Below are positions 1 to 35,795 of a stretch of 60,236 bases of DNA, one piece after another (position 1 is the first letter of the stretch; the number at the start of each line of letters is the position of its first letter). The DNA comes from Bdellovibrionales bacterium. GTDB taxonomy: Bacteria > Bdellovibrionota > Bdellovibrionia > Bdellovibrionales > DASUEL01. The notes below the pieces were generated by a model, which had not been told where the DNA came from, made no database searches, and saw nothing but the letters and a program-made list of their open reading frames with translations. The position numbers and the translations under genes were made by a program. The stretch spans positions 1 to 60,236 of the forward strand of contig JBFWOZ010000015.1 in the NCBI GenBank assembly GCA_050250255.1. Reading direction: 5' to 3'.

Positions 1-56
1 CTACTGAGGCCTACAGTCTGTTCCTAGACGAAACCACCGAACGCTTCACTAAGTAA
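1..56 (+). CDS. 3' end of a CDS truncated by the window edge (…TEAYSLFLDETTERFTK*)
   Basis: Open frame from 3 to TAA at 54-56, directly abutting the palindrome that separates it from a convergent gene. Confidence 0.5.
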   Translation, partial: TEAYSLFLDETTERFTK

Positions 57-136
57 AAGGTGCCAGTGTCTTTTTTCTGGCTACACTGCGGCCACTCCGT
101 GAAGCAGTGTAGCCAGAAAAAAGACACTGGCACCTT
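57..136. repeat. REP/REPIN-like palindromic element, copy 1
   Basis: Perfect 33-bp arms AAGGTGCCAGTGTCTTTTTTCTGGCTACACTGC (57-89 / 104-136), 14-nt loop; extends to 36 bp with the two flanking stop codons; homologous to 19213-19291. Confidence 0.9.
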
Positions 137-2026
137 TTAAAAGCCGAATTTCTTTTTCACATCATCAACAGCTTTGTCCATGGCTTTTTGGCCCTGACCG
201 GCTGCCTGATTTTTTGCTTCTGCTAGTTTATTTTCCGCTTGCTTCTTTATATTATCAGCTTCTTTTGTCTTTTGATCGATCTGCGACTTAAACTGATTTT
301 GAACAGCACTCGATTGTTGAGTGAGCTCTTCTTTTTGTTTACCAATTTTAGAATCAATCAGATCCTGAATTTTCTTTTTCGCTTCATCAATCTTCGCCTT
401 CAATTGTTTTTCAAAACCCTTTTGTAAAGCGGAGGCCAGATTTGATTCTAAAGACATGTGCAAATCATCCCAAGCACCTTTGGCGGTCGCCAGTACCGTC
501 ACTCGGCTGGCTTCTGCTACAGCTCCTTGCAGAATTTGTTGAACCTGCTCATTGTTAGACTGTGTGATATAAGAAATATCTCCAAAAGTGGTATTAGATT
601 TCACACTCACTTCCCCGGCTCTTACAACACCTTCAAATTCTGTCTGCCCACGAGCCTTTTCAAAACCTAACTTCAACTCATTACTTTCTGAAAGAGTTTT
701 GCCAGCTACTGGAAAGCTTGTTACCCGTGCCGTTAAACTTTGCATTGGTATATCGGTCGTATGATCAAACACCGCTTTCATGGTTACACCACGAATTTCG
801 GTTTTAGGAAAATCTCCTTTGAGATCAAGAACAGCAGGTTTCCCGATCAATGAGGGATTGGAAGTAACGTCCTTTAATTCTCCAGATACGTCCCCACCAA
901 AAGGAGAGCCTTCTGCCTTGGAACTCAGAGCCGCACGTCTTAACCAAAAAAGAGGATAAGAAGTTGTGGTCGGGAATTCAAAATTACGTCCTTTCGCTCT
1001 TTCATGGGCGACCAAGACCTCCTGTTTTTCTGTTCTTCGTGGAGGCATATACTCTTGGGCCAATGCGATGTAACGCTTCGCTTTTCTAATCTTAGAGACA
1101 AATTCTTCACCAAAAAATTGTTTCGATAAGCTTTCAACATCTAACTTTGGCAATTGAATCCGTGACTCGAGATCCTTGAGATCTTCCTTTACAACATCTT
1201 CCATAGACTTCATAGACTGATTGAACTGCTGAATATCTGATTGAATGGCATCGCCTTTGGCTTTTACCGAAGTGATTTTTTCATTCGTCTCGTTAACGAG
1301 AGAGGTGACATCGCTGACTTGTTTTTGAATCTGCACAAGGTCATTCGTTCCACCGATGCGGACCTGGCTCACCCGCGTCTGCAGGGCTGCAAAGTCTGCA
1401 GCCGTAGGCATCGTTTTGAACATCTCATCCCATTGTTTTTGCTTGGTCGCTAATTGATTTTTAAGCTCTTCAATTTTTTTGCTACTTTTGAGTTCGCCAA
1501 TATTCTGTAGATTATCAAGAGGTACTGCCCCTTTTAAAAGCTGAGTCGCATCAGCAAGGGCAGAGCCTTGAGCGTCTTGTTCTGCAGACTCAAGTTGTGG
1601 ATCATTCTCCTTGGGAACAACAAAACCGGGTTTTGATCGTTTTGTGCCTACTTGAAAGTTTTCAATAGAGGCATCTTGGACTAAAAGTTTCGCTCTTAAT
1701 AAAGCATCCCAAGAAAACTGGAAGTTCATTCGCCCGATTTCTAAAACATTGAGCTCTGGTTTTTCAGAATTCGTTACTTGCAGGCCAGATAAAGCAAATG
1801 AGCCACCAAGAAAACGAGTCGTGACATCTGCCACATTCGCTTCGGCTCCGTTTGCCTTTGTCACAACATATTGAATTCCTAAACGTAAATGCGTATCAAA
1901 AAACAAAACAAAATACGTCACGATTAAGCCAACGATAATGCCGAAGGGAATGATGGCCTCAAAACGAATTGGACCTTTTGGTTTTTTCTCTTTTACGGCT
2001 ACATTGGTAGAGTTTTGTGTATTCAT
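137..2026 (-). CDS. TIGR03545-family-like protein (N-terminal TM anchor, coiled coils, AsmA-like N region)
   Basis: 629 aa; GPIRFEA + TM start, FPxxxxYPLFWLR motif; paired with the TIGR03546-like gene. Confidence 0.75.
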   Translation of the reverse strand: MNTQNSTNVAVKEKKPKGPIRFEAIIPFGIIVGLIVTYFVLFFDTHLRLGIQYVVTKANGAEANVADVTTRFLGGSFALSGLQVTNSEKPELNVLEIGRMNFQFSWDALLRAKLLVQDASIENFQVGTKRSKPGFVVPKENDPQLESAEQDAQGSALADATQLLKGAVPLDNLQNIGELKSSKKIEELKNQLATKQKQWDEMFKTMPTAADFAALQTRVSQVRIGGTNDLVQIQKQVSDVTSLVNETNEKITSVKAKGDAIQSDIQQFNQSMKSMEDVVKEDLKDLESRIQLPKLDVESLSKQFFGEEFVSKIRKAKRYIALAQEYMPPRRTEKQEVLVAHERAKGRNFEFPTTTSYPLFWLRRAALSSKAEGSPFGGDVSGELKDVTSNPSLIGKPAVLDLKGDFPKTEIRGVTMKAVFDHTTDIPMQSLTARVTSFPVAGKTLSESNELKLGFEKARGQTEFEGVVRAGEVSVKSNTTFGDISYITQSNNEQVQQILQGAVAEASRVTVLATAKGAWDDLHMSLESNLASALQKGFEKQLKAKIDEAKKKIQDLIDSKIGKQKEELTQQSSAVQNQFKSQIDQKTKEADNIKKQAENKLAEAKNQAAGQGQKAMDKAVDDVKKKFGF

Positions 2027-2038
2027 AATAACTAGCTC

Positions 2039-2566
2039 CTAATTCCCAAAAAGTTCATCGTATTTTGCATACCATTTGTAGAAGTAGGTCGCTTTTACAA
2101 ACTTCCAAATTTTTGTCTCCTGGAGTCGAGCCACAACTTGCGCTCGATATTGTCGAATCAAAATTTTTGAGGCAATAAACACAATAGGAGAAAGAATGAT
2201 TGTGACAACGGCTGAACCCATGACGATCGTATTGTTGAATCGGGTATAGGGAATAATGGGCATGTTATAGAGCGTGGTGAACATCGGCTTTAATGAATCT
2301 ATGGCCAGCACCTGCACCCCAATGGCGTGGAAAGCGGGATCAAATAAAAACGCTAAGAACTTAAAAAAGAAAGCCGTAACAAATGCGGCTCCAATTTGAA
2401 TACGAAAAAAGAAGAGACAGAAAAAAACCAAAATGGTCTGCAGAGAAAAAGCGGGAGTGAATCCAAGAATCACACCACACGTAATACCTGCCGCTAATTG
2501 GTTTGTACCCGTATCCGAATTGAGAAGTTTGAAAAAAGCAAAAATTTGCTTGAGCAATAAAGTCAT
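2039..2566 (-). CDS. TIGR03546-family-like membrane protein
   Basis: LLNSDTGTNQLAAG and PYTRFNNTIVMGS motifs; start moved to ATG 2566, which follows a GGAGG SD. Confidence 0.8.
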   Translation of the reverse strand: MTLLLKQIFAFFKLLNSDTGTNQLAAGITCGVILGFTPAFSLQTILVFFCLFFFRIQIGAAFVTAFFFKFLAFLFDPAFHAIGVQVLAIDSLKPMFTTLYNMPIIPYTRFNNTIVMGSAVVTIILSPIVFIASKILIRQYRAQVVARLQETKIWKFVKATYFYKWYAKYDELFGN

Positions 2567-2651
2567 GTGGACCTCCCGAATCAATTGAAAGGTCATTTTG
2601 TTGGAGTTGTGAGAATGTGATCAATTACAAATGCGTTGCATCAGAAGGGAG

Positions 2652-3404
2652 CTAAATTTCTACATGTCCCTTTTTACAGTAAGTGGTCACGGCAGGGATC
2701 AAATGTTTTACTCCCGCCTCACCGACTTGACTTCGACGAAGCATTGCTTTTACCACTTCCACTTGGAAGTCCACAAGCGCGAGCTCGTCCCACCCGAGAG
2801 TCCACCAGCGGGCTTCAGACGGAATGAAGGCAGATTTCACCGTGAAAGCTTCAGGAACTGAACGAATATCTTCCGAAACTTCTGATAAAAAATCATAGAC
2901 TTCAGAAGGTGTTTTGGGTTTTTCGGAAAGGGATGCGACAGAAACAACTGGTTCCGCATACTCCGCACGAAATTCCTCAACAACGCTCTGGATAGAACGT
3001 GAGGATAGGGAGATAAGAAAAATGATCGCGAAAAAATAAATTTGCCCTACCATTATGCTCGTAATCATATGTTTTGTAGATAGCGCCTTCCATTCCATCC
3101 ACTTTTTTAATTGCACAAGGGAAAGATCGTTAGAAGGAAGCAGGGCCTCATCATCATTTTTTAAAAGCCGCCAAACGAGATAGCCCATCAAAAAGGCCAC
3201 GCAAAGTGCAAAAAGAAATGTAGATCCATAGGCAATCCATTTAGACCACATACGAATTGTTAACATCTCCTCGAGCGCGGTTGATCTCGCGAGCGATTGA
3301 TAACCAAAGGATTTATTGTACCACTCAAGTGTGGTAAGAGCATTTTGAGCTGTAGAGTTAGAACAGAGAGCAGCTGGGAGAGAAGAAACGACTTCTGTTT
3401 TCAT
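2652..3404 (-). CDS. hypothetical membrane protein (2 TM segments)
   Basis: 250-aa ORF, two hydrophobic helices, no family recognised. Confidence 0.6.
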   Translation of the reverse strand: MKTEVVSSLPAALCSNSTAQNALTTLEWYNKSFGYQSLARSTALEEMLTIRMWSKWIAYGSTFLFALCVAFLMGYLVWRLLKNDDEALLPSNDLSLVQLKKWMEWKALSTKHMITSIMVGQIYFFAIIFLISLSSRSIQSVVEEFRAEYAEPVVSVASLSEKPKTPSEVYDFLSEVSEDIRSVPEAFTVKSAFIPSEARWWTLGWDELALVDFQVEVVKAMLRRSQVGEAGVKHLIPAVTTYCKKGHVEI

Positions 3405-3418
3405 AGGAAGGATCGATT

Positions 3419-3434
3419 TGCAACATCAACGCCA
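3419..3434 (-). promoter_or_regulatory. putative sigma54 (-24/-12) promoter
   Basis: Minus strand TGGCGTTGATGTTGCA = GG-N10-GC just upstream of ATG 3404. Confidence 0.55.
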
Positions 3435-3538
3435 TCGAGAAGTGATCCGCCTCAAAACTAAGAGGAGCCCATCTCGCTCCCCTATATTTCACCGTCTAGA
3501 GTTTAGATAAAGAAGAAAATTTTTCCTTAAGGCCTTGA

Positions 3539-4891
3539 TTACGGAGTCTGAAAGCCTTTAAAAATGCGAGGCATATCAAGACGTCCACCGTAATAGACCA
3601 TGCTCATGCTACGGGGATCTCCCGTCACATTTTTATCAAAAATCTCATTCAAATCAGCGAAAGAAAGTTCAGGACGATAACTGAGCATAAGCCCCACACA
3701 ACCGGCGACCCCTGGCGTAGCCATGGATGTTCCGCTCATAGGTCCATATTTCCCTCCGGGCAAAGTACTAACAACGGTGTCGCCTGCCGCTGAGAGATGA
3801 GAAGAATATCGGCCGTAATTAGACCACCAAGTGACTGTAATGTTTGTCGCATAGAGCGCGGACACCGTGTACAGACCTGGGATGTCGAATTCCGCCGGAT
3901 ATTGATTCACTGGATCTCGATCTAAATTTTTTCCTTCGTTACCAGCTGCTACGATATTCACAATTCCTGCATTGGAAGTCGTCACAAAAGCATCCAGAAG
4001 TGCCTGGTTATACTCTTCGCCACCCCAAGAACTATTGATCACTGTTGCACCCATATTCATGGCGTACTCTAAAGCCAAAATCGCATCCGCGTCAGTTCCC
4101 CAACCTTCCGCCGAAATAAACTTCAGAGCCATTATCGAACATCGTGGACAATGGCCGGCAATGCCGAGCCCATTTCCACCAACCGCCGCGGCCGTGCCCG
4201 CGACATGGGTTCCATGAGACTGATCATCGTAGGGAAGACTGTCGCGATTGACGAAGTCATATCCCACGACATCGTCAACATAACCATTTTCATCGTCATC
4301 TACGCCATTCGTTTCTTTCGATTGACCATTTGAATCCATCCCCGATTCACCGGTATTTCTCCACATATTGTGAAGCAAATCTGGGTGAGTATAATCCACA
4401 CCGGTATCTAAAACAGCAATGATGGTTTGCGCATTTCCAATGGCGCCATACTTATTCCAAACCGTGCGTGAGCCATTATGATAGTCCGCAATCCCATAGT
4501 TCTGTGATTCCTTAGGGTCTTTCACCCATCCGCTGAGAGGACCAGGTCGTGGCGGAATGGGGGGATCTTGCGGAGAAAAAAGAGCATTCTGTGCTCCAAA
4601 TTCATAAATCGCCGGCCGCCTCTTACTATTAGGAATCGCGTATTCCAAAGTCGTGAACAATTGAAGACCATTCAGAAGACTCTCATACTGAATATCTTCC
4701 ACAGCCACTCGTACAAGCCCCGGAACAATTTGATATTGGTGAATGACTTTTCCACCACGTGCGCTTAAAAACTGTTCCGTTAACATTTGTGCTTGAAAAG
4801 AATTTTGCAAATCAAATTTTACGAGGATCTCTCCCGCTTTTGAAGAGCTAACGATAAAAAAACAAATGAGAAAAAATAAGTATTTCGGCAT
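3539..4891 (-). CDS. secreted S8 family serine peptidase (subtilase)
   Basis: Signal peptide; catalytic triad VLDTG, HGTHVAG, GTSMATP; oxyanion AAGN; NGVDDDENGYVDD Ca-loop; start ATG 4891 after GGAGGG. Confidence 0.95.
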   Translation of the reverse strand: MPKYLFFLICFFIVSSSKAGEILVKFDLQNSFQAQMLTEQFLSARGGKVIHQYQIVPGLVRVAVEDIQYESLLNGLQLFTTLEYAIPNSKRRPAIYEFGAQNALFSPQDPPIPPRPGPLSGWVKDPKESQNYGIADYHNGSRTVWNKYGAIGNAQTIIAVLDTGVDYTHPDLLHNMWRNTGESGMDSNGQSKETNGVDDDENGYVDDVVGYDFVNRDSLPYDDQSHGTHVAGTAAAVGGNGLGIAGHCPRCSIMALKFISAEGWGTDADAILALEYAMNMGATVINSSWGGEEYNQALLDAFVTTSNAGIVNIVAAGNEGKNLDRDPVNQYPAEFDIPGLYTVSALYATNITVTWWSNYGRYSSHLSAAGDTVVSTLPGGKYGPMSGTSMATPGVAGCVGLMLSYRPELSFADLNEIFDKNVTGDPRSMSMVYYGGRLDMPRIFKGFQTP

Positions 4892-4915
4892 GGTCCCTCC
4901 TTGGATCATACGTAT

Positions 4916-4943
4916 TATTCGGATTAAAATGAGACAGACTTAA
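4916..4943 (-). promoter_or_regulatory. possible sigma28 (FliA)-type promoter for the subtilase
   Basis: Minus strand TTAAG-N16-CCGAATA; spacer one base longer than canonical. Confidence 0.4.
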
Positions 4944-5019
4944 GTTCTCGACCTTTTGCCGGCTCCAAGCCTCATAAACAATCCTTGACGAAAGACTCAG
5001 TTCTGACTTTATTTATCTT

Positions 5020-5547
5020 ATGGATATTAGCAAAACTTTAAAACAAGCCGTTGAAACTGCCACCCAACACTCTGCTTTTAAGCAAATGAAGGAAAATTTT
5101 TTTCTTACTGCTTTCTCAATTTTTAAAATCCCTCTGATTTATTATCTCAGCCCGCGAATCTTAGAACTTGATGAGCATCTTGTTCGTGTACGTATACGTC
5201 TCACTCGACGCGCAAAAAATCATCACGGCTCCATGTATTTTGGGGCACTTGCTATCGGTGCTGATCTTGCAGGCGGCGCTCTCGCCATGAAACTCATTCG
5301 AGAGAGCGGCGTGAACGTTTCGTTTATTTTCAAAGATTTTACGGCTCATTTTTTGAAACGACCCGAAGGCGATGTAGAATTTATTTGCCGTGATGGAAAA
5401 AAAATTAAAGATCTCGTGAACACTGTTATCAAATCGAGCGAACGTCACAATGCGACTTTAGATATTTTAGCGCTTGTTCCCTCAAAGTTTGGACAAGAGC
5501 CCGTTGCGACTTTTACGCTGACATTATCACTCAAGAAGAAAACTTAA
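5020..5547 (+). CDS. hotdog-fold thioesterase-like protein (DUF4442/YiiD-like)
   Basis: KNHHGSMYFGALAIGAD motif, FLKRPEGDVEF. Confidence 0.8.
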   Translation: MDISKTLKQAVETATQHSAFKQMKENFFLTAFSIFKIPLIYYLSPRILELDEHLVRVRIRLTRRAKNHHGSMYFGALAIGADLAGGALAMKLIRESGVNVSFIFKDFTAHFLKRPEGDVEFICRDGKKIKDLVNTVIKSSERHNATLDILALVPSKFGQEPVATFTLTLSLKKKT

Positions 5548-6209
5548 GTTTCGGAATTGGTTTCTTTATTAAAGAGTTCGGGTAATGCTTTTGCAGGACG
5601 CGAAAGATGATCTTTAGCTCGTTCATAAAGTTCTGATTGCAAATTATTTTTGCAGCACGTGCGTAGAAGCTCCGTACGTGGAGACTCTAAAGGTAACTGA
5701 GTTTGTCCACAGGCACACACCATTTTGACTGGGCGAGCCGGCATTCCAAGGACTAAGTGAAATTCCGGTACAGAGCGAGTCACCATTGCTCCCGCGGCAA
5801 TCATTGAAAAAGCTCCCAGAGAGATGCCGCAACGAATAATGGCACCGGCACCAATGGCACTTCCCATCTCGAGATGAGTTTCCACAATCTGCCAATTTTT
5901 ATTGCCCGCACGAGGAAACATATCGTTCGTAAAAATCACGTGAGGACCAATAAAAACCCAAGAACTAACCTGAACACCACGAAAAACACTGACGCCATTT
6001 TGAATGCGCGTACCTTCACCAAGATGCACGTTTTCATCGACATAAACATCTCTCGCCAGAGAAACATTATCGTTGAGAACAGCACCTTTGCGCACATGAC
6101 AAAAGTGCCAAATTTTCACGTCTTTTTTAAGAGTTACGCCAGGCTCAACCACGGCTGTTGGATGAACGTAAGAACCGGGTCCCATAGGAATATTGGATTC
6201 TGGCTTCAT
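5544..6209 (-). CDS. hexapeptide-repeat N-acetyltransferase (WbpD/WxcM-like sugar acyltransferase)
   Basis: KIWHFCHV, IQNGVSV, FIGPHVIFTND, C-terminal CxCG; start uncertain (ATG 6209 preferred). Confidence 0.85.
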   Translation of the reverse strand: MKPESNIPMGPGSYVHPTAVVEPGVTLKKDVKIWHFCHVRKGAVLNDNVSLARDVYVDENVHLGEGTRIQNGVSVFRGVQVSSWVFIGPHVIFTNDMFPRAGNKNWQIVETHLEMGSAIGAGAIIRCGISLGAFSMIAAGAMVTRSVPEFHLVLGMPARPVKMVCACGQTQLPLESPRTELLRTCCKNNLQSELYERAKDHLSRPAKALPELFNKETNSET

Positions 6210-6293
6210 GCTCGAGTTATCGCTCTTGGGAACCGTAAGGGTCAACACTTTTAGTTGCTTCTCCCTTAGGACATTGAGTACTCTTTGATTTCA

Positions 6294-7046
6294 ATGAATT
6301 CAAATTCCCGAAAGCCATTACAGATTGCTTATATTGTACCTGTTCACAATGATGCTGAATCTCTCCATTTGTGTATTGAGCAGCTTCAAGAACAGACAAA
6401 AACATTACCGAATACATTTACGGTGCTCGTAGAAAATGGAAGCCAAGATTCTTCTTTCCAAGTTGCACACAAATTAGCTAACGAAAGCTCTATGCCCATT
6501 CACGTCTTTTCAGAAAAAAACGCAGGCATAGGTTATGCCTATCATCGAGGAATGGAAGAAGCTCTCAAGATTTGGGATCAAACTTCGGACCTCTGGATGA
6601 TTTTAACCGCCTCCGATCTTCCTTTTACCTTTAGCGATCTCCGCCAATTTTTAACGTGGTACAAATCTCACTCTCCGCTCCCTACGCGTATGGCAATGGG
6701 CTCAAAGGCCCACCCACGAAGTGTCTTAAATAATTCTTTTTCTAGACGCTTGATGACAGGAACCTACCGGCTCGCCCGTAAAACGATGTTAGGCATGAAA
6801 ACCAAAGACTCTCAAGGTTCGGTCTTCCTTCACGCCACTCTCGCCAAAGAGCTTTTACCAAAAATTGCTTCTAGAAACTTTTTTTACTCCACAGAACTTG
6901 TCTACTATGCCGAGCAAAAAGGGGAAGTCGTAGAAGAACTCCCCGTGGTGATTGCCGAAGCCATCCGCCCTTCCACCGTTCGCCCTCTAAAAGATGGTAG
7001 CCGCATGTTTTTACAAATCATGGAACTTAAAAAACGAAACTTGTAG
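6294..7046 (+). CDS. GT2 glycosyltransferase (Dpm1/dolichyl-P glucose synthase-like)
   Basis: IVPVHN…VENGSQD, NAGIGYA, KDSQG motifs; DxD position reads ASD. Confidence 0.85.
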   Translation: MNSNSRKPLQIAYIVPVHNDAESLHLCIEQLQEQTKTLPNTFTVLVENGSQDSSFQVAHKLANESSMPIHVFSEKNAGIGYAYHRGMEEALKIWDQTSDLWMILTASDLPFTFSDLRQFLTWYKSHSPLPTRMAMGSKAHPRSVLNNSFSRRLMTGTYRLARKTMLGMKTKDSQGSVFLHATLAKELLPKIASRNFFYSTELVYYAEQKGEVVEELPVVIAEAIRPSTVRPLKDGSRMFLQIMELKKRNL

Positions 7047-8693
7047 ATGAAAATTTTCTCCAAACTTCCTTTCTACGCCTTCATTCTTCTCGTCAGTTTT
7101 ATTTTATGTGCTTTCACATATGGAGCCGCGGTTTTGAATCCGCAATACGTTGAATGGCTCTACAAACATGATGGAATGAATCACTATCTTGGTTGGCTGT
7201 TCTTTCGACAAGAACCATGGGGTTTTCCTTTAGGGCAAATTCACAACTTTATCCATCCAATCGGAACCACGGTTATCCAAATGGATTCTATTCCGGTGAT
7301 GGCGTTTTTCTTTAAAACCTTTCACCCCTGGCTCCCTGTGCGATTTCAATATTTTGGACTTTGGCATTTTCTCATCTGGGCTCTTCAAGGCTATGCCGGA
7401 TTAAAAATCGCAGAGCATTTGCAAGCCACTACAGTTCAAAAGTTTTTGATCATTTTTCTTTTCATGTGGTCTTCGATCATTTTCTTCAGGACAGATCACC
7501 ACTCTCTCACAGCGCAATTTTGTCTTGTGATCTCTATTTACTATTACATGGAAACTCAAAAAGGGCGAGGTCCTCTTTTCGGCTCTATGTTGCTCACTCT
7601 CGCATTTATTTCTTTAGCGCATCCGTATTTAGTAGCAATGACACTCCCACTTTACTTCGCCACCTACCTCCGAGCGTTCTTGGACCATCCGCAAAAAAAA
7701 TGGAAATACATTTTTGAGTTCACTGGGTTCCTTACCATTGTGGGATTTTGCTTTTGGCAAATCGGCATATTTGGAGTGAAGGATCCGGGAGACCTAGGTT
7801 TTGGGTCACTCTCGTCAGATCTCCTCACTTATTTTAACTCTCTGTACACCTCAAGCATTCTACCGCGTCTTCGCACAGGCTGGGGGCAATATGAAGGTTA
7901 TGCTTATCTCGGGCTCGGAATGATTGTCTTATTTTTTATTCAGATCGGATGGCTTCTTTCTAGAAAAGAACATTTGAAGAAAATTTTCAAGAGAGCTTGG
8001 CCCTTTGTGATCATTCAACTTTTAATTTGGATTTTTTCTCTTTCCAATATTATTACTTTTGGCGGCAATCCTATTCTCAACTTAGATTTTATTTATTCTC
8101 ATCTCGGTTCTATTCCGGGAACTTTTCGATCCTCAGGAAGGTTCTCTTGGCCGCTCTTTTATTTTATCTATTTTGTTTTGATATGGTCGGTTCTCCGTCG
8201 ATGGTCAACTCAAAAAGCAACGGCCATTTTGTTTGCAGTAGCCCTTTTACAAGTCATCGACATAGCTCGCTATTACGGAACCTCTTCTGCCGGTGAAGCG
8301 GCTCCGGCCCCTGCTTTTCGCCCTGCTGCTTGGCAAACAAAAGCCAGTGGGGCGACGGCCATGATTATTCTTCCACCAGCACTCATTAAAGGAGCCTTTG
8401 ATTGTGGCCGTGGAGGCTTTACTCCCGATGAAGTCCGACACTTAGGCATTTTAGCGGGAGAGATGGGTTGGTCGGTCAACAGCGGCTACAGCTCACGTGG
8501 AGATGCACGCGTGTTTCAAATCTGTGAAGAAACTTGGGAAAGTCTCCCTCAACGTTTTGCATCTTCAAACCAATTTTTTGTGGTTCATCGAGCTTTCATT
8601 GATAGCTTTTTGCAAACCGCAGCGAAGTTCAACAAAAGCTCTAAGAAAAAAATCACCTGCCAACACATAGATGGCTTTGAAGTCTGCCGCTAA
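7047..8693 (+). CDS. polytopic membrane protein, DUF6311/GT-C-like glycosyltransferase candidate
   Basis: About 11 TMs; HYLGWLFFRQEPWGFPLG, MDSIP, FQYFGLW, EGYAYLGLG, FRSSGRFSWP motifs; abuts the GT2 stop. Confidence 0.7.
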   Translation: MKIFSKLPFYAFILLVSFILCAFTYGAAVLNPQYVEWLYKHDGMNHYLGWLFFRQEPWGFPLGQIHNFIHPIGTTVIQMDSIPVMAFFFKTFHPWLPVRFQYFGLWHFLIWALQGYAGLKIAEHLQATTVQKFLIIFLFMWSSIIFFRTDHHSLTAQFCLVISIYYYMETQKGRGPLFGSMLLTLAFISLAHPYLVAMTLPLYFATYLRAFLDHPQKKWKYIFEFTGFLTIVGFCFWQIGIFGVKDPGDLGFGSLSSDLLTYFNSLYTSSILPRLRTGWGQYEGYAYLGLGMIVLFFIQIGWLLSRKEHLKKIFKRAWPFVIIQLLIWIFSLSNIITFGGNPILNLDFIYSHLGSIPGTFRSSGRFSWPLFYFIYFVLIWSVLRRWSTQKATAILFAVALLQVIDIARYYGTSSAGEAAPAPAFRPAAWQTKASGATAMIILPPALIKGAFDCGRGGFTPDEVRHLGILAGEMGWSVNSGYSSRGDARVFQICEETWESLPQRFASSNQFFVVHRAFIDSFLQTAAKFNKSSKKKITCQHIDGFEVCR

Positions 8694-8979
8694 CTCCGAG
8701 GAGCAACTTCGTTCGTTTTTAATCTTCAAAGACCAAGGCGCGACGACGAAGGACTGGTTCAACCAATTCGAGGAGGAGCAACGCCGGGATTTGAAGATTA
8801 AAAACGAACACTGGCTGAAGGTAAAAAAAATGGCGACTTGGAGGGGGGGGGGGAATTACCAAGCCGCCACAGGGGGTATCCTGCCCATGAGCAATGATAA
8901 TGCCAAAGCCTATTGCCTATTGTTTTCTTCTGAAGCCGAAATAAACTCCGGCGAACGGATACGAATTAAACAGTCTTAG
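8671..8979 (+). CDS. short hypothetical ORF or gene remnant containing a G11 tract
   Basis: 102-aa ORF filling the gap before ilvE; overlaps the upstream gene by 23 bp; G11 at 8843-8853. Confidence 0.3.
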   Translation: MALKSAANSEEQLRSFLIFKDQGATTKDWFNQFEEEQRRDLKIKNEHWLKVKKMATWRGGGNYQAATGGILPMSNDNAKAYCLLFSSEAEINSGERIRIKQS

Positions 8980-8986
8980 AAAAAAT

Positions 8987-10099
8987 TCAAACAGTCCAGA
9001 TCCAGCGTCCTGGAGCTTCGGATTCCCCGCGCTGAATCTTCTTAAGTTTTTCGAGGATTTTTGTGGCCACCGTGAAGTCTGGCGAAAGCTTTAAAGACTC
9101 GGTCGGTGCGTTTGTTTTTTCCTGATAAAGGAGCTCACGAAGTGGTTGCACAACCGCAGCAGTACCACAGGCGAAACATTCGGTAACTCGTCCAGAAAGA
9201 ATGTCTTCTCTCAATTTAGTAAAAGAAATGGGCTCTTCAGATGCTTTTAAACCGATACTCGGTGCCATTTCTAAAATGGATTTACGAGTCACTCCGTTAA
9301 GAATCGTACCCGTCAAAGGTGGCGTGACGAGAGCTCCGTCACGAACCATAAAGAAATTCATTCCACCCAATTCGTCGACAAAGTCATGCCCAACGGCATT
9401 CAAATAGAGAAGCTGATCACAGCCAAGTTTCGCCGCGTAATCCAAAGGCCCAAGGCTTGAAGCATAATTTGCTGCAGTTTTCGCCTCACCAAGTCCACCG
9501 GGATAAGCCCGGATGAACTCTCGATTCACCAGAACTTTCGCTCCCGTAATACCTCGTCCATGAAAGTAGTTACCTGCAACAGACGCGATGATACGAAAAC
9601 TGTATTTATCAGACCGACCCATTTTAATTTTAGAATCTGAACCATACATCATCGGGCGAAGATAAAGTGCATGGTCCGCGAACTCTGGAACAGAAGCACG
9701 CTCAAATTTGACATATTCCATAACACATTTTGTGAAGAGCTCTTCCGGCATAGGGGGCATCGACATCAGACGGCAAGATTGGGCAAAACGTTTTGCATGT
9801 GAATCGACGCGAAAAACTCCCACACTCCCATCAGCTTGATAAAAAGCCTTCATCCCCTCAAAAATACTTTGGCCGTAATGAAGAACGACAGAGCTTGGCT
9901 CCATGGGCTCAGGTCCGTAAGGACGGATATCCACTTGAGCGTTTGTGTAATCTCCGTTCAAAATTTCCATGTGGAGCATATGCGGAGCAAATACAGTTCC
10001 AAACTTTGGATTTTCAATCTTTTCAAGAGGTGGCAGAGCATTACAGGTTTTAATTTTTGTTGAGTGGCTTGACTGAAATTGCACGCGGCTCGCTTCCAT
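8987..10099 (-). CDS. ilvE: branched-chain amino acid aminotransferase
   Basis: LHYGQSIFEGMKA, LYLRP, GEAKTAANY (PLP Lys), ELGGMN, ILNGVTRKS, CGTAAVV. Confidence 0.95.
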   Translation of the reverse strand: MEASRVQFQSSHSTKIKTCNALPPLEKIENPKFGTVFAPHMLHMEILNGDYTNAQVDIRPYGPEPMEPSSVVLHYGQSIFEGMKAFYQADGSVGVFRVDSHAKRFAQSCRLMSMPPMPEELFTKCVMEYVKFERASVPEFADHALYLRPMMYGSDSKIKMGRSDKYSFRIIASVAGNYFHGRGITGAKVLVNREFIRAYPGGLGEAKTAANYASSLGPLDYAAKLGCDQLLYLNAVGHDFVDELGGMNFFMVRDGALVTPPLTGTILNGVTRKSILEMAPSIGLKASEEPISFTKLREDILSGRVTECFACGTAAVVQPLRELLYQEKTNAPTESLKLSPDFTVATKILEKLKKIQRGESEAPGRWIWTV

Positions 10100-10202
10100 C
10101 ACAAGATTCTCCTTGGCTCAAAAGTCACGAAAATACCTTGTGAACCGTCGCTTGGTCATCCTAGGATTTTACATTCCCCAAGAATAATGCAATGAATAAT
10201 CC

Positions 10203-11366
10203 ATGAATCCTATATTTCAACTAAAAGACCTCCTCCTTTATTTTTTAAAGCTCGGAGCTGTGCGCTTTGGAGGCCCAGCGGCTCTTGTACAAACCATGAG
10301 ACAAGATCTGATTTTTGAAAAAAAGTGGTTTTCTGAACGAGACTACCAGGTGGGTTTAGCGCTCGCACAAATGGCCCCCGGCCCTCTTGCAAGCCAGCTC
10401 GCGATTTATTTTGGTTGGAAAAAAAGTGGATTTTGGGGTGGTTTTTTTGTTTTGATCGCTTTTGCTTTGCCCGCCTTCCTCCTCGTATGCTTACTCGCCC
10501 ATTTCTATTCTCTTTATCAAGATTTTTCGTGGCTGAAAGCGGTGACCATTGGAGCTTCTGGCTGCGTGATGGCACTCATGATGAAAAGCGCCATTCAGCT
10601 TGCAAAAGGCGTCCCGCTTAAAGATCCGATTTATTTGTTTATTCTCTGTGCGAGCGCTCTTGCCACCGTCATTTTTAAAAGCGAACTTGGTTGGATTTTC
10701 ATTATTTCGGGCGTGATTGCATGGGCACATCAACATTACAAAAAACAAAAGGGCCTAAAAAGCCTAATATTATTTTTCTTTTCTATAAGTTTTCTTCATT
10801 CTACGACGAGTGAAGCCCAAAATTTTTGGGACGCTATCAGGGAATCGATGGACTGGAAACTCTTCCAATATTTTTTTGAAGTAGGCGCTTTGGTTTTTGG
10901 CAGCGGTTCGGTGATTATTCCTTTTCTCTACACCGGTGTTGTTCATGAATTTCATTGGCTTTCTGAAATGCAATTTCTCGACGCCATGATGGTGGGCATG
11001 CTTACACCGGGCCCTATGGTTATTACGGTTGCTTTTGTTGGATATCTTGTAGAAGGTTTCTCAGGTGCCTTTCTCAGCTGTCTTGGAATTTTCTTGCCCT
11101 GCTTTCTATTCGTCGTCTTTCCCGCACCTTTTTTTGAAAAGATGTCAGAGCATAATGATCTTTCGGCAGCTCTCGAAGGGATGTCGGTAGCCGCAACCGG
11201 AGCCATTCTCGGGGCAGTCTGGATGGTCGCGCAAAAGACATTTCAACACCCTGTTACCGTGGCTGTCTTCATCATCTGCGCACTTATTTTATGGAAAGGG
11301 AAAAAGGTTCCTGATCCTCTCTTGATTTTAGGATCCGCACTTACGGGATGGATTTTTATTTCTTAA
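10203..11366 (+). CDS. chrA: long-chain chromate efflux transporter (CHR family)
   Basis: Duplicated FGG…PGP motifs (FLKLGAVRFGG…AQMAPGP; VFGSG…LTPGP). Confidence 0.9.
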   Translation: MNPIFQLKDLLLYFLKLGAVRFGGPAALVQTMRQDLIFEKKWFSERDYQVGLALAQMAPGPLASQLAIYFGWKKSGFWGGFFVLIAFALPAFLLVCLLAHFYSLYQDFSWLKAVTIGASGCVMALMMKSAIQLAKGVPLKDPIYLFILCASALATVIFKSELGWIFIISGVIAWAHQHYKKQKGLKSLILFFFSISFLHSTTSEAQNFWDAIRESMDWKLFQYFFEVGALVFGSGSVIIPFLYTGVVHEFHWLSEMQFLDAMMVGMLTPGPMVITVAFVGYLVEGFSGAFLSCLGIFLPCFLFVVFPAPFFEKMSEHNDLSAALEGMSVAATGAILGAVWMVAQKTFQHPVTVAVFIICALILWKGKKVPDPLLILGSALTGWIFIS

Positions 11367-11955
11367 TCACTCGCTCAAAAAAACGTTCACCCCAGTTGAC
11401 GGGTCGGTTGGGATCGTAATTCCCACCCATTTTTTTCGTAACCATGTAGAAAAACAAAGTCGCTCCACCAACAATAAGAGCCACCTTGCTAGCTTCCCAA
11501 AGATAAAAACCAGCGGCATTCATAAACTTTTGGATATCATCCCAGCGCACAGCAATTTGGAGGTCATGAAAACGACGACCTAATCCCGCTTGTAAAATCT
11601 TGAGGTGGCCCTTCGGAAGATCAATAAAACGAACACCCACTTTGATTCCCGAGAAATGCATCATCTGCTTAGGACGCTCGTCGGACCCTTCTAGACGCAT
11701 CACTTCGGCAAACCAAGCTACCTTTCCACCTTGTTCGCCGGGGATGGGAAATTCGACTTTTAATATTTCGCCAATTTGAGGAAGAAAGTTCCAATTTACA
11801 ATAAAAGACATGCCCGATTCCGACATGTCGATGATCTCTAACTCATAGACCTGTGAGCGCCTGCGATTACGGGAGGCCACACGAACCATTTTCAGTTCAT
11901 GGGGATTCAAGATGTATCGAGGGGCGCGATCGCCCAATTTGCGAGCAGCTGACAT
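11356..11955 (-). CDS. PilZ-domain (c-di-GMP-binding) protein with C-terminal TM
   Basis: RxxR-type N motif (DRAPR), DMSESG motif, GVRF end, hydrophobic C-terminal helix. Confidence 0.8.
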   Translation of the reverse strand: MSAARKLGDRAPRYILNPHELKMVRVASRNRRRSQVYELEIIDMSESGMSFIVNWNFLPQIGEILKVEFPIPGEQGGKVAWFAEVMRLEGSDERPKQMMHFSGIKVGVRFIDLPKGHLKILQAGLGRRFHDLQIAVRWDDIQKFMNAAGFYLWEASKVALIVGGATLFFYMVTKKMGGNYDPNRPVNWGERFFERVIKK

Positions 11956-11971
11956 AGAGTCCTCTCATTAC

Positions 11972-11998
11972 TTATCGGAATCGGACCTAGGTCCTTGA
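11972..11998 (-). promoter_or_regulatory. sigma28 (FliA)-type promoter for the PilZ gene
   Basis: Minus strand TCAAG-N15-CCGATAA, followed by GAGG SD and ATG 11955. Confidence 0.7.
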
Positions 11999-12091
11999 TT
12001 GAGATATGAGTTTTTTTAGCAAACCTAAGCGATTTAATAGAAAAGTCATGGGGCTTACCGTTTCATTCCGAGACGTAATAAGCCTCAGAGG

Positions 12092-12119
12092 TTGACACTG
12101 ACACCCTCCCCCAGATAAT
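12092..12119 (+). promoter_or_regulatory. sigma70-type promoter for the 12165-ettA unit
   Basis: TTGACA-N16-GATAAT. Confidence 0.6.
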
Positions 12120-12164
12120 TTCATCTGTTCCAATGTTTTATTCTCAACGCAAAACGAGGGTCTA

Positions 12165-12608
12165 ATGGAAGAATCCAATAAGCCAATCACCGAACTGCCC
12201 GCCGTGGCTCAAAACGTCTTCATTTCTTGTAAAAAGTGTGCCGCCGAGCGCTATCACAAGGTTTTGGCTCATACGACAGAAACGAGTGCGAAAGTTCAAT
12301 GTGAAGTTTGCGGCAGTAAAAAGACCTTCAAACTTGCAAAGCCCAAAAAAGCGACCAAACCAAGGAAGTCTTCTAAACGTAAAGATGGAAAAGCTGGTCA
12401 AATGGCAACGCCTACTTGGGCGGTACTGAAAGAGCAACAAGCCAGCACGGCAGCTCAAACTTACAAAATGGGCGATCTCTATAAATTGAATACCCCCATC
12501 GAACACCCTAAGTTTGGTCTTGGGTTTGTCGTTCTTGCGACACCACAACGTATCGATGTGGTTTTCGAAGACGGCCAACGCTCTCTCGTTCACAACCGCG
12601 GAAACTAA
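12165..12608 (+). CDS. Zn-ribbon + Lys-rich linker + Tudor-like C-terminal domain protein
   Basis: CKKC…CEVC pairs; IEHPKFGLGFV resembles the HPKFGxG motif of UvrD/PcrA C-terminal domains. Confidence 0.7.
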   Translation: MEESNKPITELPAVAQNVFISCKKCAAERYHKVLAHTTETSAKVQCEVCGSKKTFKLAKPKKATKPRKSSKRKDGKAGQMATPTWAVLKEQQASTAAQTYKMGDLYKLNTPIEHPKFGLGFVVLATPQRIDVVFEDGQRSLVHNRGN

Positions 12609-12620
12609 AGGAAATAGCAA

Positions 12621-14297: not shown

Positions 14298-15118
14298 TTT
14301 CGACGAAGTCGTAAAAGAACGTCTTTTTGAAAAGCTAGGAAATACTTTTTAAGAAAGTCTTCGGGTTTTTTATTTGAATGTACGAGCTTCGTTAAATCCA
14401 TCGCGAAGGTTACGTGACTCTCTTGATCCACACTGGTGGCTTCAAAGAAGGTGGCATTCGCAAGACGGCGTCCCATTGTGGCGAGATCGTATCTTTTTCC
14501 ACCACTCACTTGAGAATCAAAAATCTGACAGAGTTTTAAAGCGAGTTTGGAATTTTTAGAAACCGGCAACACCACTTTTTGTTCATCGTTTAACCAATCG
14601 AGATCTCGCCACACTTCGCAGCCATAAACTTTTTTAGGACGCAGAGATTTCGGCAGCCTCTTCAACGCTTCAATGGTTGCAAGAGCCACCGCCACATGTG
14701 TGTCGTGTTTATCTGCTAAATTATGAGTGTAGACATACTCTGGTTGGCATTCGGCAAAAAGGGTCGCAAGTTCTTCGACCAGCGGTCTTCTGGCTCTTGG
14801 AGATTTCACCGTTTTACTTTCATAACCCATCTGGATCATAAGGCCGTATTTACCAAGTTTTGCGGCTTTATTTTGTTCGTCCCTTCGGACTTTCTTCATC
14901 TGCTCGGCAGAATAATTTTTATACTTCCCGGTGCGGGGGCTGCCGCCACCACTGGTGAGGGTGACACCCGTAAGCCAGTTCTTTTTTGATCCATAACACT
15001 CTAAAATTCCATGATAGGCCATGATCTCAATATCATCTTGGTGAGCCGCGATGACCATATGAGTGGTTCTCGCCATTGCCTGATCAAAGGATTTTTTATC
15101 CGGTACAAAAATATCCAT
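14294..15118 (-). CDS. PIG-L/LmbE family deacetylase
   Basis: AAHQDDIE and [10 protein letters not shown] metal-binding motifs. Confidence 0.85.
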
Positions 15119-15124
15119 AAGCTC

Positions 15125-17586: not shown

Positions 17587-17719
17587 GGTTTAAAGCATAC
17601 AGGGACTTTTTAATGGTCACAATGCGGACATGGTCACCCTCATCGCTACGTCGCAGCATAAAAGACGAAGATTTCAAAAAAATCCCGTGCTATACCCTTT
17701 TCAACTTGTGAGGTATTTA

Positions 17720-18274
17720 ATGAAAAGTCAGAAAAAGAAACAAATCGACAAACAAAACCTATTTTATGACTTCATCGATTCTTCCATCGGAGTCGTTGCG
17801 TTTGCATGGTCCAGTAAAGGCTTAAAAGCCGTTCAGCTCCCTGAAAAAACATCTCGTGCGACAATTCAAAAACTTCTCAACCGCTTTCCTGAAGCCACCC
17901 TCACTCAAAAGTCGAATGATCCTTTAGCAAAAGATCTCCGAAAGAAAGTGCAGAACCTCCTCGCAGGGAAGCCAGAGAGCTTTAGCTCCATTCCCCTCGA
18001 CATCTATTCATCGCCTTTCCACAAAAAGGTTTATGAGGTGCTTAAAAAAGTGAAACCAGGGCAGGTGTTAACGTACAAAGAACTCGCCACTCAAGCCGGT
18101 TCCCCACTTGCTTCACGGGCGGTAGGGCAAGCGATGGCACGCAACCCAGTGCCTCTTGTGATTCCGTGCCATCGAGTTATGGGATCCCAAGGAAGTCTTA
18201 CAGGTTTTACGGCTGCTGACGGAGTGAAACTCAAATCAACTCTTTTAAGATTAGAGAAAGCCCAAATTGTCTAA
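17720..18274 (+). CDS. ogt: methylated-DNA-protein-cysteine methyltransferase
   Basis: TYKELA, RAVGQAMARNP, PCHRV active site; start ATG 17720 after GAGG. Confidence 0.92.
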   Translation: MKSQKKKQIDKQNLFYDFIDSSIGVVAFAWSSKGLKAVQLPEKTSRATIQKLLNRFPEATLTQKSNDPLAKDLRKKVQNLLAGKPESFSSIPLDIYSSPFHKKVYEVLKKVKPGQVLTYKELATQAGSPLASRAVGQAMARNPVPLVIPCHRVMGSQGSLTGFTAADGVKLKSTLLRLEKAQIV

Positions 18275-19212
18275 AGTTTGCGAGCTACTTTTTCTAAATT
18301 ATCGACTTCCTCGAGCCAATAATTATGACTGCTGAAGTTAGGAAATAGCTTCGGAAAAGAGGGATCGGTCCAACGTTTGGCAATCCACGCAGAATAGTAA
18401 ATCATTCGTAGAGCTCTAAGGGGCTCTATGAGAGCAAGGGTTGAATCATCAAAGTCCCGGAGCTCACAATAACCCTTCAGAAGTTCATCCACATTGATTT
18501 TTGTTTCTTCTTCATCACCCTGAGTAAGCATCCAGATATCCTGAACTGGAAGACCGTTCATCAAATCATCAAAATCTACAAAGAAAAATTCTTTGCTATC
18601 GTTAATGAGATTTCCTTTATGGCAATCTCCATGAATACGGATAAAATCCTCTTCATAAAGTTCATCTTCAAGAAACTCCAAAATATCTTCGGCCGCCGTC
18701 ATGTACCGGTTGATCAATTCTGGAACGATAAAAGATTCTAAAATTTGTAACGATGGCCAACCTAAAAAGCGTGGATGTAAATTCCATCGATGCTTGGCCT
18801 TGACCCTAGCTCCTACGTTATGGAGCTGAGCTAATCGACGACCAATTTTCTCAAGATCTCCCGGCAAAAACTCATCAGGCGATCGTCCTTGAATTCTTTC
18901 GAAGAGGCTCATCAGCATTCCTGAGTGCTTACTGACAGAAGTTCCGTTGGAGAGACTCAAAGCGGCAGCCGCTGGAATTCCTTCCATTTTCAAATCCACA
19001 ATAAACTTGTGCTCATCTAAAATAGCTTCTCGTAGCCATCGTCCAGGTCGGTAAAACTTGGCAATAACTTTTTTGTTATCTTCAAGCTCGACGGAAAAAA
19101 CGCGATTTTCATAGGAGTTGAGTTGCGTGAGATATCCGTTCGGCTGAAAACCCTCAGCCTCTACGGCATTGAGCACGATATCGGGAGTTAAATTAAAAAA
19201 GTTGTCTCTCAT
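18271..19212 (-). CDS. srkA: stress-response Ser/Thr kinase (RdoA/YihE, APH fold)
   Basis: LNSYENRV, KFYRPGRW, HGDCHKGN, DFDD, AWIAKRWTDPSFP. Confidence 0.93.
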   Translation of the reverse strand: MRDNFFNLTPDIVLNAVEAEGFQPNGYLTQLNSYENRVFSVELEDNKKVIAKFYRPGRWLREAILDEHKFIVDLKMEGIPAAAALSLSNGTSVSKHSGMLMSLFERIQGRSPDEFLPGDLEKIGRRLAQLHNVGARVKAKHRWNLHPRFLGWPSLQILESFIVPELINRYMTAAEDILEFLEDELYEEDFIRIHGDCHKGNLINDSKEFFFVDFDDLMNGLPVQDIWMLTQGDEEETKINVDELLKGYCELRDFDDSTLALIEPLRALRMIYYSAWIAKRWTDPSFPKLFPNFSSHNYWLEEVDNLEKVARKL

Positions 19213-19291
19213 AAGGTGCCAGGTTCTTTTCCCGGGTCACACTGCTTCACAAAGTGCCGCGGTGTGACCCGGGAAAAGAACCTGGCACCTT
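19213..19291. repeat. REP/REPIN-like palindromic element, copy 2
   Basis: 33-bp arms AAGGTGCCAGGTTCTTTTCCCGGGTCACACTGC (one G·T pair), 13-nt loop; stem extends to 37 bp (19209-19295); loop inverted relative to copy 1. Confidence 0.9.
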
Positions 19292-19298
19292 ATGACAC

Positions 19299-20462
19299 TT
19301 AAAAATAAGAACCAGACTTAATTTTTTCGACGATGATCTTCTCTGGCATGATTGGATCTTTTGGATTCACCATGAAAAACGACTGCTGTTCGCAACGTCT
19401 TTTGTTTTTGATTAACCAGTGAAGAATATCCGCTAGTTTTTTATTTTTCTTATCTTTAAAGAACGGATCGTTCTCAAGCGCATCTTTCGCTTTTTTCAAC
19501 GCCCGAACTTCTCCAGGATCATTTTCTTTTACGGCGTAGTCATGCAGATCATACTTTTTAATATCTTCTGGTAACACACCTAAAAACTTTACGTCAGGTG
19601 CAGAGAAATCTTTATTACGAATGAGACTCGCCGCAGACCCTGCTTTCAATGTACGAAAGATGTTCTGCATGGTGTACGCATCCAGATCTCCGAAAAAATA
19701 CATAGGAACCGCCAATTGGTCCTGGATTAATTTACACCAGCCGCGCACACCGTTACTAGGAACCCCTTGGGCACCTAGTAAAATACAGTTATGTCGCTTC
19801 GTGAATCCATTCGACACCAAGGTATTTGCTGTACCTTCTGATTCTACGATCAAACAGAAATCAATTTTCTTCTTCGCTTTTAACTTCAGAGCCTGAGGGC
19901 GGTTTTTGGGCTGAAAAGGACTTGTACCGAGAGTACTCAGATCAACAACGGCTTTTGTTCCGTCTACCAATGTTTCAGTCACCACCAGCTGCTGAGAATA
20001 AGTTTGGCCCCCACGATCGTTGGCAAAACAATTGAGTTCTTCGCGGTAAACTTCGAGCATTTCACCGATGAAGTCGATCGTTGAATCACTCTCGTCCTGT
20101 TCTTGAAAATCCAACGCGCGAAGTTTGGGGTTATGCTTCACTTCCCCTTTTGAGATGTAATAAAGCTCTCTCTTCGTATTGATGGCGCCAACTTCTAAAT
20201 TTCTCAAGAGAATCTCGAGCATAAAAACGGCACGTGACATTTTTTGGACCGAAGAAACGTTCAGCTCCGTTTTAACTGTTTTATCTCCAGGAGTGAGAAA
20301 GCCCACTTTGGAATTATAAATAGAGTTATCCAAGCTACACTTTGTCGCTTCAAGAATGGGGCGTTTTGCAGTTTCCAAATCCCTGAGCATTTGTTCGCAG
20401 AGCTCTTTGGAGAGTTTTGGAATATCTTTTACTTCTTTACTACTATTGACTCGAATTTTCAT
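19299..20462 (-). CDS. top6A: DNA topoisomerase VI subunit A (Spo11-like)
   Basis: TKRELYY (catalytic Tyr region), Toprim IVESEG, GxGVP, GDLD acidic motif; follows top6B. Confidence 0.92.
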   Translation of the reverse strand: MKIRVNSSKEVKDIPKLSKELCEQMLRDLETAKRPILEATKCSLDNSIYNSKVGFLTPGDKTVKTELNVSSVQKMSRAVFMLEILLRNLEVGAINTKRELYYISKGEVKHNPKLRALDFQEQDESDSTIDFIGEMLEVYREELNCFANDRGGQTYSQQLVVTETLVDGTKAVVDLSTLGTSPFQPKNRPQALKLKAKKKIDFCLIVESEGTANTLVSNGFTKRHNCILLGAQGVPSNGVRGWCKLIQDQLAVPMYFFGDLDAYTMQNIFRTLKAGSAASLIRNKDFSAPDVKFLGVLPEDIKKYDLHDYAVKENDPGEVRALKKAKDALENDPFFKDKKNKKLADILHWLIKNKRRCEQQSFFMVNPKDPIMPEKIIVEKIKSGSYF

Positions 20463-20474
20463 AATTTCTCCCGT

Positions 20475-35793: not shown

Positions 35794-35795
35794 AA

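Follow-up and report, generated by a model that had tools for sequence, protein, structure and literature searches.

The window analyzed here, a stretch of 60,236 nucleotides of Bdellovibrionales DNA, contains two long hairpins whose arms are close to exact mirror images, and the question raised by this locus is where such elements come from and what keeps their two arms alike. An earlier note on this DNA had described an 80-bp palindromic pair, and both members were present as described. Copy 1 has two 36-nt arms (54 to 89 and 104 to 139) with 100% complementarity around a 14-nt center, and its DNA fold of −44.9 kcal/mol (z −14.6) was equaled by 0 of 200 shuffles; copy 2, spanning 19209 to 19295, folded with z −17.0, and no shuffle was equally good. 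The two centers and their opposite orientation were likewise borne out by the sequence of each copy, and copy 1 was found to fill exactly the 80 nt separating the convergent stop codons at 54 to 56 and 137 to 139 (both TAA). The 33-nt left arms of the two copies differ at 7 positions (79% identical), all of which are mirrored in the opposite arm. One correction applies to copy 2, which has one unmirrored position near its center (right arm ...CACCGC, left arm ...CACTGC).

The features of both copies are collected in Table 1. Copy 1 occurs again at the start of contig C54, which represents one locus assembled twice and no further copy. Copy 2 lies between the stop codon of the topoisomerase VI A gene and the start of the APH-family gene, and the N terminus of the APH-family protein aligned with 3 of 3 among the homologues listed.

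Table 1. Positions of the two hairpins, their parts, and the neighboring genes in the window
Feature	Position	Strand	Basis or remark
Copy 1 element core (GT...AC), two subtype A arms tail to tail	60..133	.	GT end placed where the copies and relatives' copies cease agreeing
Copy 1 left arm, outer 25-bp zone	60..84	+	One mismatch only versus the arms around the C1 Y1 gene
Copy 1 center: inner arm ends (GC-K-TC(C)A-like motif) around a 3-nt loop	85..108	.	Mini-hairpin of the earlier note
Copy 1 right arm, outer 25-bp zone	109..133	-	Arm alignment
Copy 1 left mirrored flank, 6 nt	54..59	+	Contains TAA stop of a cNMP-binding-domain gene running on into C54
Copy 1 right mirrored flank, 6 nt	134..139	-	Contains TAA stop of the 629-aa gene, C terminus conserved in relatives
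Copy 2 element core, two subtype B arms	19216..19288	.	Private variant in both arms; one unpaired position near the center
Copy 2 left mirrored flank, 7 nt	19209..19215	+	Contains start codon of the APH-family gene (19210-19212, minus strand)
Copy 2 right mirrored flank, 7 nt, noncoding	19289..19295	-	3 nt from the topoisomerase VI A stop
Neighbor: 629-aa protein, no Pfam match, conserved in the order	137..2026	-	Homology
Neighbor: APH-family phosphotransferase gene	18271..19212	-	Homology
Neighbor: DNA topoisomerase VI subunit A gene	19299..20462	-	Homology

A dispersed family of paired arms

Arm cores were located by fuzzy matching across the genome (3.09 Mb in 95 contigs), which gave 72 arms of subtypes A, B, and C, or 70 once the C54 duplicate of copy 1 was dropped. 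These 70 arms were arranged as 28 compact dimers, 3 pairs with spans of 100 to 135 nt, 1 gene-flanking pair 789 nt apart, and 6 singles; 27 of the compact dimers were built from a single subtype, and 1 was mixed. Copy 1 belongs to subtype A and copy 2 to a variant of subtype B, and both subtypes are represented many times, so that the 7 differences between their arms are mostly a subtype difference, and the proposal that they represented independent compensations in the two copies was not upheld. The same genome holds two related families of similar general build, D (36 arms) and E (20 arms). When searched with a degenerate pattern for A/B arms, the genome collection gave one match, a single arm at the end of a dnaN-like gene in a Pseudobdellovibrionaceae MAG, and the metagenome collection gave 0; the A/B arm pattern is almost private to this genome. 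Arms across the order share AG-GT..TTTT..GCRTCA. The tetramer GTAG is present in the A and C arms and absent from the B, D, and E arms and most arms of relatives, and the GGGGWSAS motif was absent from the arm sequences. A single arm forms no significant hairpin (z −0.2 to −1.2).

A stop codon was observed 0 to 3 nt before the arm in 28 of 64 paired arms. The corresponding backgrounds were 31 of 3,000 random AG-GT sites and 1.1% of intergenic positions, both unconditioned on the TAA/TAG motif, so that part of the stop codon enrichment is the motif itself. With regard to empty sites, 5 of 5 relatives have glyS next to ppdK with no element between them and an estimated spacer of 4 to 40 nt, compared with 92 nt here; this is the sole empty-site evidence, and it is at family distance. 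An APH gene beside topoisomerase VI A was found in 0 of 29 relatives' loci, so no empty site was available for copy 2, and no homologue of the cNMP-domain gene near the copy 1 locus was found in 12 relatives' loci. Two of the relatives (G010 and G030) had filled sites in common and no clean empty site. In three sequencing runs (one study, apparently one strain), no junction skipping copy 1 or copy 2 was found over positions 1 to 20000 of the window.

Y1 transposase genes bracketed by arms

No mobilizing gene had been noticed in the window, and this observation held: a PF01797 profile search of the genome gave 8 matches, 0 of them on the window's contig C15, where tblastn also gave 0 hits. The 789-nt A pair, located on contig C1, brackets a 209-aa Y1 gene (C1:52114-52746), with A arms 112 nt before its start and overlapping its stop that form a 29-bp perfect inverted pair. 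The encoded protein contains NHYH and YVYRNP motifs and scored over the PF01797 cutoff, and H60, H62, Y119, and N123 were invariant among 27 aligned Y1 proteins. Its best PDB match by sequence was Escherichia coli TnpA-REP (4ER8; E value of 1.4e-8), which was also the best fold match of its predicted structure (pLDDT 92.5; E value of 9.3e-10). The C1 gene is intact. A paralogue with 61% identity is cut by the end of contig C60 and has a C arm alongside. Two further paralogues, on C8 and C16, lie within D and E pairs, D and E each having their own dispersed family. No Y1 gene flanked by arms of subtype B, the subtype of copy 2, was found in the assembly by the PF01797 profile, tblastn, or the arm map. 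The suggestion of a dispersed nonautonomous family tied to a RAYT-like HUH tyrosine transposase was supported by the compact dimers present genome-wide and by the arms around the C1 gene.

Y1 genes flanked by long inverted repeats, the repeats of which also form families of singles, dimers, and clusters, are described as TIRtrons in the accessible text of Di Nocera, De Gregorio, and Rocco (2013, PMC3733652). Within the same order as the genome studied here, Y1 homologues were present in 27 of 40 relatives. In 23 of the 29 homologue loci retrieved, the gene lay between inverted repeats with a pair score of 14 or higher, nearly all of them starting with a GG(T/C)-type end, and one TIRtron site was retained in two related genomes with 93% identity. 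A motif consisting of the arm start, a T run, and GCRTCA was matched in 9 of 41 genomes, compared with 0 for the reversed control. In the relatives G005 and G017, 19 loci (picked from 35 matches after gene-flanking ones were excluded) contained a single 34-nt unit each, with the inverted partner absent within about 230 to 270 nt downstream; the monomer can therefore apparently spread alone. In another relative (G031), a TIRtron arm begins right at the topoisomerase VI A stop.

Assignment of the repeats to the TIRtron/TIR family is held with high confidence. As judged from sequence comparison, copies 1 and 2 are probably gene-less dimers of the inverted repeats of the C1 TIRtron, likely spread by the C1 enzyme or one of its paralogues; fold-back copying of one arm onto the other likely keeps them symmetric.

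Symmetry of the arms and mirrored host flanks

The outer 25 bp of 27 dimers contained 4 mismatches in 675 pairs, and the next three positions contained 33 in 81. In the outer zone of 23 aligned copies (of 28), 13 pairs were changed on both sides and none on one side only. Across the 28 compact dimers, the mismatches comprised 26 of A-C and 15 of G-T, and a search for a strand-specific G-T bias was negative. The GCGTC at the end of the D monomer pairs back and continues directly into the second arm in 14 of 15 dimers. The restriction to two-sided changes appears to suit DNA copying and not selection on an RNA helix. Of the readings put forward earlier, arm-to-arm copying was supported by these two-sided changes and by the rarity of mismatches in the outer zone, and a structured-RNA family was not supported.

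A reading in which selection for pairing keeps a structured RNA or bidirectional terminator family palindromic would agree with a crude ORF call that placed 17 of 31 pairs between convergent genes, 12 in tandem, and 2 between divergent genes, with a hairpin that is very stable in a transcript, and with a covariation score of 0.42 versus 0.145 in shuffles, although that covariation mostly reflects the three subtypes. Nevertheless, Rfam gave no family at threshold, the sole matches being sub-threshold ones to microRNA hairpins, and the outer 25 pairs of the 23 aligned copies contained no one-sided change, G-U changes included. The excess of A-C over G-T mismatches and the presence of arms around transposase genes also argue against it, as does a terminator scan of positions 1 to 400 that gave 2 sites, neither at copy 1. 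Selection on RNA pairing is therefore considered very improbable as the cause of the symmetry, while the hairpins may affect transcripts as a by-product.

The mirror was found to continue beyond the element into the flanks. Outward of the GT end, it averaged 6.5 nt in 31 pairs, compared with 2.4 in 10,000 flank permutations (maximum, 3.8), and mirrored bases extend 4 to 9 nt beyond the element end. Agreement between the flanks was 74/81 at positions 4 to 6 (expected, 0.49), 47/81 at positions 7 to 9 (expected, 0.28), and 53/162 at positions 10 to 15 (expected, 0.25), with positions that are not independent of one another. In 14 of 27 dimers, the self-mirror was longer than the match to any other copy.

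The origin of the mirrored bases was examined at four genes, ubiB, htpX, glyS, and gcvP, with 1 to 5 homologues each. UbiB ends with YNYIRK (relatives, NYLRK, YNYIKK, and YNFMKK, with one further locus masked and one truncated), HtpX with YFPI (NYPL in the single relative of 5 above threshold), GlyRS with DKLQSF (DKLDNF in 1 of 5 relatives), and GcvP with IEAYS (IESYQ in 1 of 5 relatives). The mirrored bases at these genes are thus conserved host gene ends, indicating that a stretch of host DNA was copied, inverted, onto the opposite side of the element. MaiA, encoded convergently to GcvP, ends with QPDFS, where one homologue has QPDSPMDN, which gives the impression that its final codons were replaced. 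At copy 2, the left flank is likely the original host side and the right flank the copied side; at copy 1, the mirror consists of only the commonest 6-nt target, so the direction of copying is not readable there. The orientation of the center failed to predict the original host side in 3 cases, two pointing one way and one the other. The long mirror is not general across families: it reaches only 3 nt in the D dimers of the same genome, and no mirror beyond the consensus was found in 10 long-spaced pairs and in 7 dimers of the relative G039, in which a target-like flank occurs mostly on one side only.

That symmetry and mirrored flanks are both assembly artifacts of palindromes is scarcely credible. 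Contigs do break at the elements, and copy 1 was assembled twice, but contigs of another assembly cover positions 110 to 19238 and 19266 to 20000 with no differences (the run may be the source of this genome), and they break where 31-mers become shared if the mirror is 19209 to 19295. In addition, the mirrored flanks join unique sequence on both sides, and the inner mismatches are retained. A classical MITE that duplicates a TA target and is mobilized by a DDE transposase, the mirrored bases then representing palindromic target sites, is suggested by the TA close to the end in most flanks and by some convergent sites (C10:12491) that rebuild to overlapping stops if TA is removed once. However, the distance from TA to the end varies, C34:8941 and C49:5888 have no TA there, the long mirrors would require perfect palindromic targets of 10 to 12 bp, and the G039 flanks are one-sided. 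Y1 genes were also the only transposase-like genes found between arms, and the MITE reading is regarded as most improbable.

Fold-back copying of one arm onto the other is quite probable, and for the coupling of that copying to the enzyme's nick, the chances appear even. In the proposed mechanism, the Y1 enzyme, acting on single-stranded DNA, would join the GT end of an arm to a short A-rich target ending in AG. The commonest target would be TAAAAG, with TAAG and TAG also used, and no direct duplication would be made, as with IS200/IS605 enzymes; these use a short one-sided target according to the accessible text of PMC6006769. Insertions inside genes would be lost and the survivors would accumulate at stop codons, so that the pile-up there would reflect both this loss and the TAA/TAG held in the target. 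A polymerase would then extend a free 3′ end, located inside the hairpin or at its foot, with the first arm as template and running on for a few bases into the host flank; once rejoined, the extended end would yield a perfect second arm and an inverted copy of the target side. Besides strand transfer, HUH nicks are able to prime synthesis, as stated in the accessible part of PMC8266576. Put more generally, and tentatively, TIRYT enzymes may spread a unit of roughly 35 nt to stop codons, with nick-primed fold-back overrunning into the host and leaving an inverted target duplication of 4 to 11 nt that can give the neighboring gene a new stop and C terminus, as maiA opposite gcvP appears to show.

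Quasi-palindrome correction occurs by template switching at long hairpins. The same TIRtron-derived elements might thus have acquired their symmetry and mirrored flanks later, by template switching during host replication and with no role for the enzyme's nick. At two loci, copying took place on an element whose right end was already present. C3:108173 consists of arm, center, and arm plus a 9-nt mirrored copy, followed by center and arm again, and this junction was also found in a contig of another assembly; C3:53306 retains a 6-nt remnant of an earlier end. Both look like traces of fold-back with a return to the template, and C3:53306 suggests that copying occurred on an element already in place, an outcome equally compatible with a host process. 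The long-spaced pairs, which are unable to form a tight hairpin and have no extra mirror, are also consistent with host template switching. On the other hand, the D dimers are tight yet mirror 3 nt, and the 7 tight G039 dimers mirror none, so the effect follows family or arm length. Furthermore, mismatches are retained close to the center and disappear at a set distance of 25 bp from the end, which suggests a fixed place of priming. Later symmetrization by the host is judged rather unlikely.

Comparison with known systems

The feature is real and belongs to a known kind of system, of which no description for this lineage was found in open-access text, and it adds one well-supported sequence signature. 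In the accessible portions of the respective papers, the re-formation of symmetric REPIN-like doublets is called a key open issue (PMC3116915), and the mechanism of REP dissemination is still to be elucidated (PMC8266576); the TIRYT works found in open-access text are bioinformatic. The parts that can be named here are an intact enzyme gene, its arm, a predicted AG/GT junction, a predicted inner end GCRTCA, and a predicted inverted-target footprint, and the elements sit on the stop codons of housekeeping genes, whose last codons they may rewrite. If enzyme-coupled fold-back is true, the footprint would be distinct from direct duplications and from IS200/IS605, and it would directly explain how doublets of the REPIN type recover their symmetry. 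Should host repair alone account for the mirror, what remains is a new TIR family of ordinary type, in an order that has received little study. No description of this repeat family or of mirrored host flanks was found in open-access text, and the accessible parts of PMC8049555 and 10.1101/2024.07.17.603846 contained nothing bearing on the mirror.

The link to REP/REPIN elements and RAYTs drawn in the earlier note stood with respect to a RAYT-like Y1 enzyme and fell with respect to GTAG-type REPs or REPINs, the closest kind being TIRtron/TIRYT. As far as the accessible texts on REPIN-RAYT and BIME-TnpA-REP systems go (Bertels and Rainey 2011, PMC3116915; Corneloup et al. 2021, PMC8266576), the likeness consists of two inverted units in a hairpin with compensatory changes, a single-copy, vertically kept Y1 gene flanked by the repeat, and a position after genes. 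The elements here differ in that no conserved GTAG guide precedes the hairpin, a lone arm has no hairpin, and most GTAG-reading residues are changed. In the alignment of the C1 protein with 4ER8, from which the numbering is taken, only the W among W94, Q95, E100, H101, and R104 is kept, and R is replaced by K. A GTAG REP/REPIN-RAYT system was ruled out by the absence of GTAG from the B, D, and E arms and by the NCBIfam RAYT model NF047646, for which the C1 protein scored 68.3 bits, below the cutoff of 80.

With IS200/IS605 elements (IS608 and ISDra2), as they are presented in the accessible text of PMC6006769, the system shares the fold family, an apparent one-sided target with no direct duplication, and a short conserved motif at the other end of the unit. 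It differs in having inverted repeats and not two different hairpins as its ends, a gene that is not multicopy, and an NF033573 score of 18 against a cutoff of 55.

Most TIRYTs are placed in TnpA-Y1 subclass 2.1, equivalent to group 1 of Bertels, in the accessible text of Quentin et al. (2018, PMC6006769), where this subclass is equated with TIRYT and the C-terminal tail is described as heterogeneous in subclass 2.1.2. The proteins studied here share the NH[VYF]H and Y-[IV]-x-x-NP motifs, the downstream serine (SS) motif, and the lack of canonical REPs with this subclass. They differ in their length of about 200 to 215 aa versus a median of 238, in having [WYF]GG in place of the W[EQ]/FQ motif, and in the tail, no HTH family having been found by Pfam in the 27 members at an E value of 0.05. 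Agreement with subclass 2.1 thus appears in the motifs and not in an HTH tail, and filing under 2.1 is not firm.

The closest likeness is to TIRtrons and TIRYTs. The accessible text of PMC3733652 contains no mention of mirrored host flanks, stop codon abutment, or Bdellovibrio. The GGGGWSAS motif of some TIRs is a point of difference, being lacking in the arms here, but the same text also lists TIRs without this motif, so that its absence is no bar to membership. The shared features are a Y1 gene that lies within long inverted repeats and not GTAG REPs, the presence of several such genes in one genome, each paired with a repeat of its own, and moderately abundant repeats that occur as singles and dimers. 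In its structure the system is that of a TIRtron, for which we infer cleavage by the enzyme and movement of the repeats.

Further transposase-like genes and an arm-bounded gene

A second group of genes resembling the HUH tyrosine transposase (Y1), about 240 aa long, was present in the genome in multiple copies and went with an inverted repeat, GGGACGGAG-like, that differed from the arms of the main family. The upstream DNA was near-identical in two of the copies, which suggests, from the sequence, that the whole unit moved recently. Four additional Y1_Tnp matches carried an NHLH motif and a different tail, three of them being more than 90% identical. None of the arms of families A to E was seen in the flanks inspected for these four matches.

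Arms of E, one of the related families that bracket their own Y1 paralogues, were also found as a pair enclosing a 178-aa gene other than Y1. This gene resembles a tyrosine recombinase, judging from an HCLRHTFA motif. It may be cargo between TIRs, or the arms may have been inserted on either side of it.

Arm ends and gene orientation

The outer end of the arm recurred as short tandem repeats beside full arms, both in this genome and in its relatives. Such repeats hint that the arm end has been cut and religated more than once. An extra arm subtype was represented by a few single arms. In a crude ORF script, all tandem-gene sites of the main family (12/12) were on the minus strand of their own contigs, which may reflect chance or a bias of that script.

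Other features of the window

Position 39 of the window is G, while both another assembly and contig C54, where the copy 1 locus was assembled a second time, read C; an assembly error may therefore lie among the window's opening bases. The window also encodes topoisomerase VI, subunits A and B, in a bacterium, with subunit A being present in 39 of 40 relatives.

Coordinates of the features described (C, contigs of the genome; L, Y1 gene loci from this genome and its relatives)
Feature	Location	Loci
Y1-like group, ~240 aa	C57:8858-9604, C56:3-725, C3:99815-100546, C20:39144-39896	
NHLH-motif Y1_Tnp matches	C48, C21, C14, C26	L002, L004-L006
E-arm pair with 178-aa gene	C40:11697-12335	
Tandem outer-arm-end repeats	C16:28027, C22:12946, C13:16225	L013, L017, L022, L029, L033
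Extra arm subtype	C26:406-440, C63:13482, C7	
Topoisomerase VI A and B	window 19299-22142	
rRNA operon with tRNA-Ile	window 35677-41043	
tRNA-Ala, separate from the operon	window 45397-45472	
Distinct hairpin element	window 8711-8809	
Its relatives (at least six)	C28, C7, C41 (two), C92, C1	
Conserved-core family	C16:43739, C9:74818, C1:110538, C11:76257, C33:15666, C33:15904, C12:1997, C28:11863, C29:21292	
Conserved-core family	C19:14668 group	
Conserved-core family	C20:29936 group	

Hairpin elements with a conserved core

One hairpin element in the window, distinct from copies 1 and 2, had a conserved asymmetric core inside 20-bp arms that were private to that copy, and it had relatives elsewhere in the genome. 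Three further families likewise combined a conserved core with perfect inverted arms, here of 17 to 36 bp and varying between copies; gene ends rarely lay inside these arms in this genome. On their sequences, the three families could represent a longer form of the inverted flank copying proposed for the main family.
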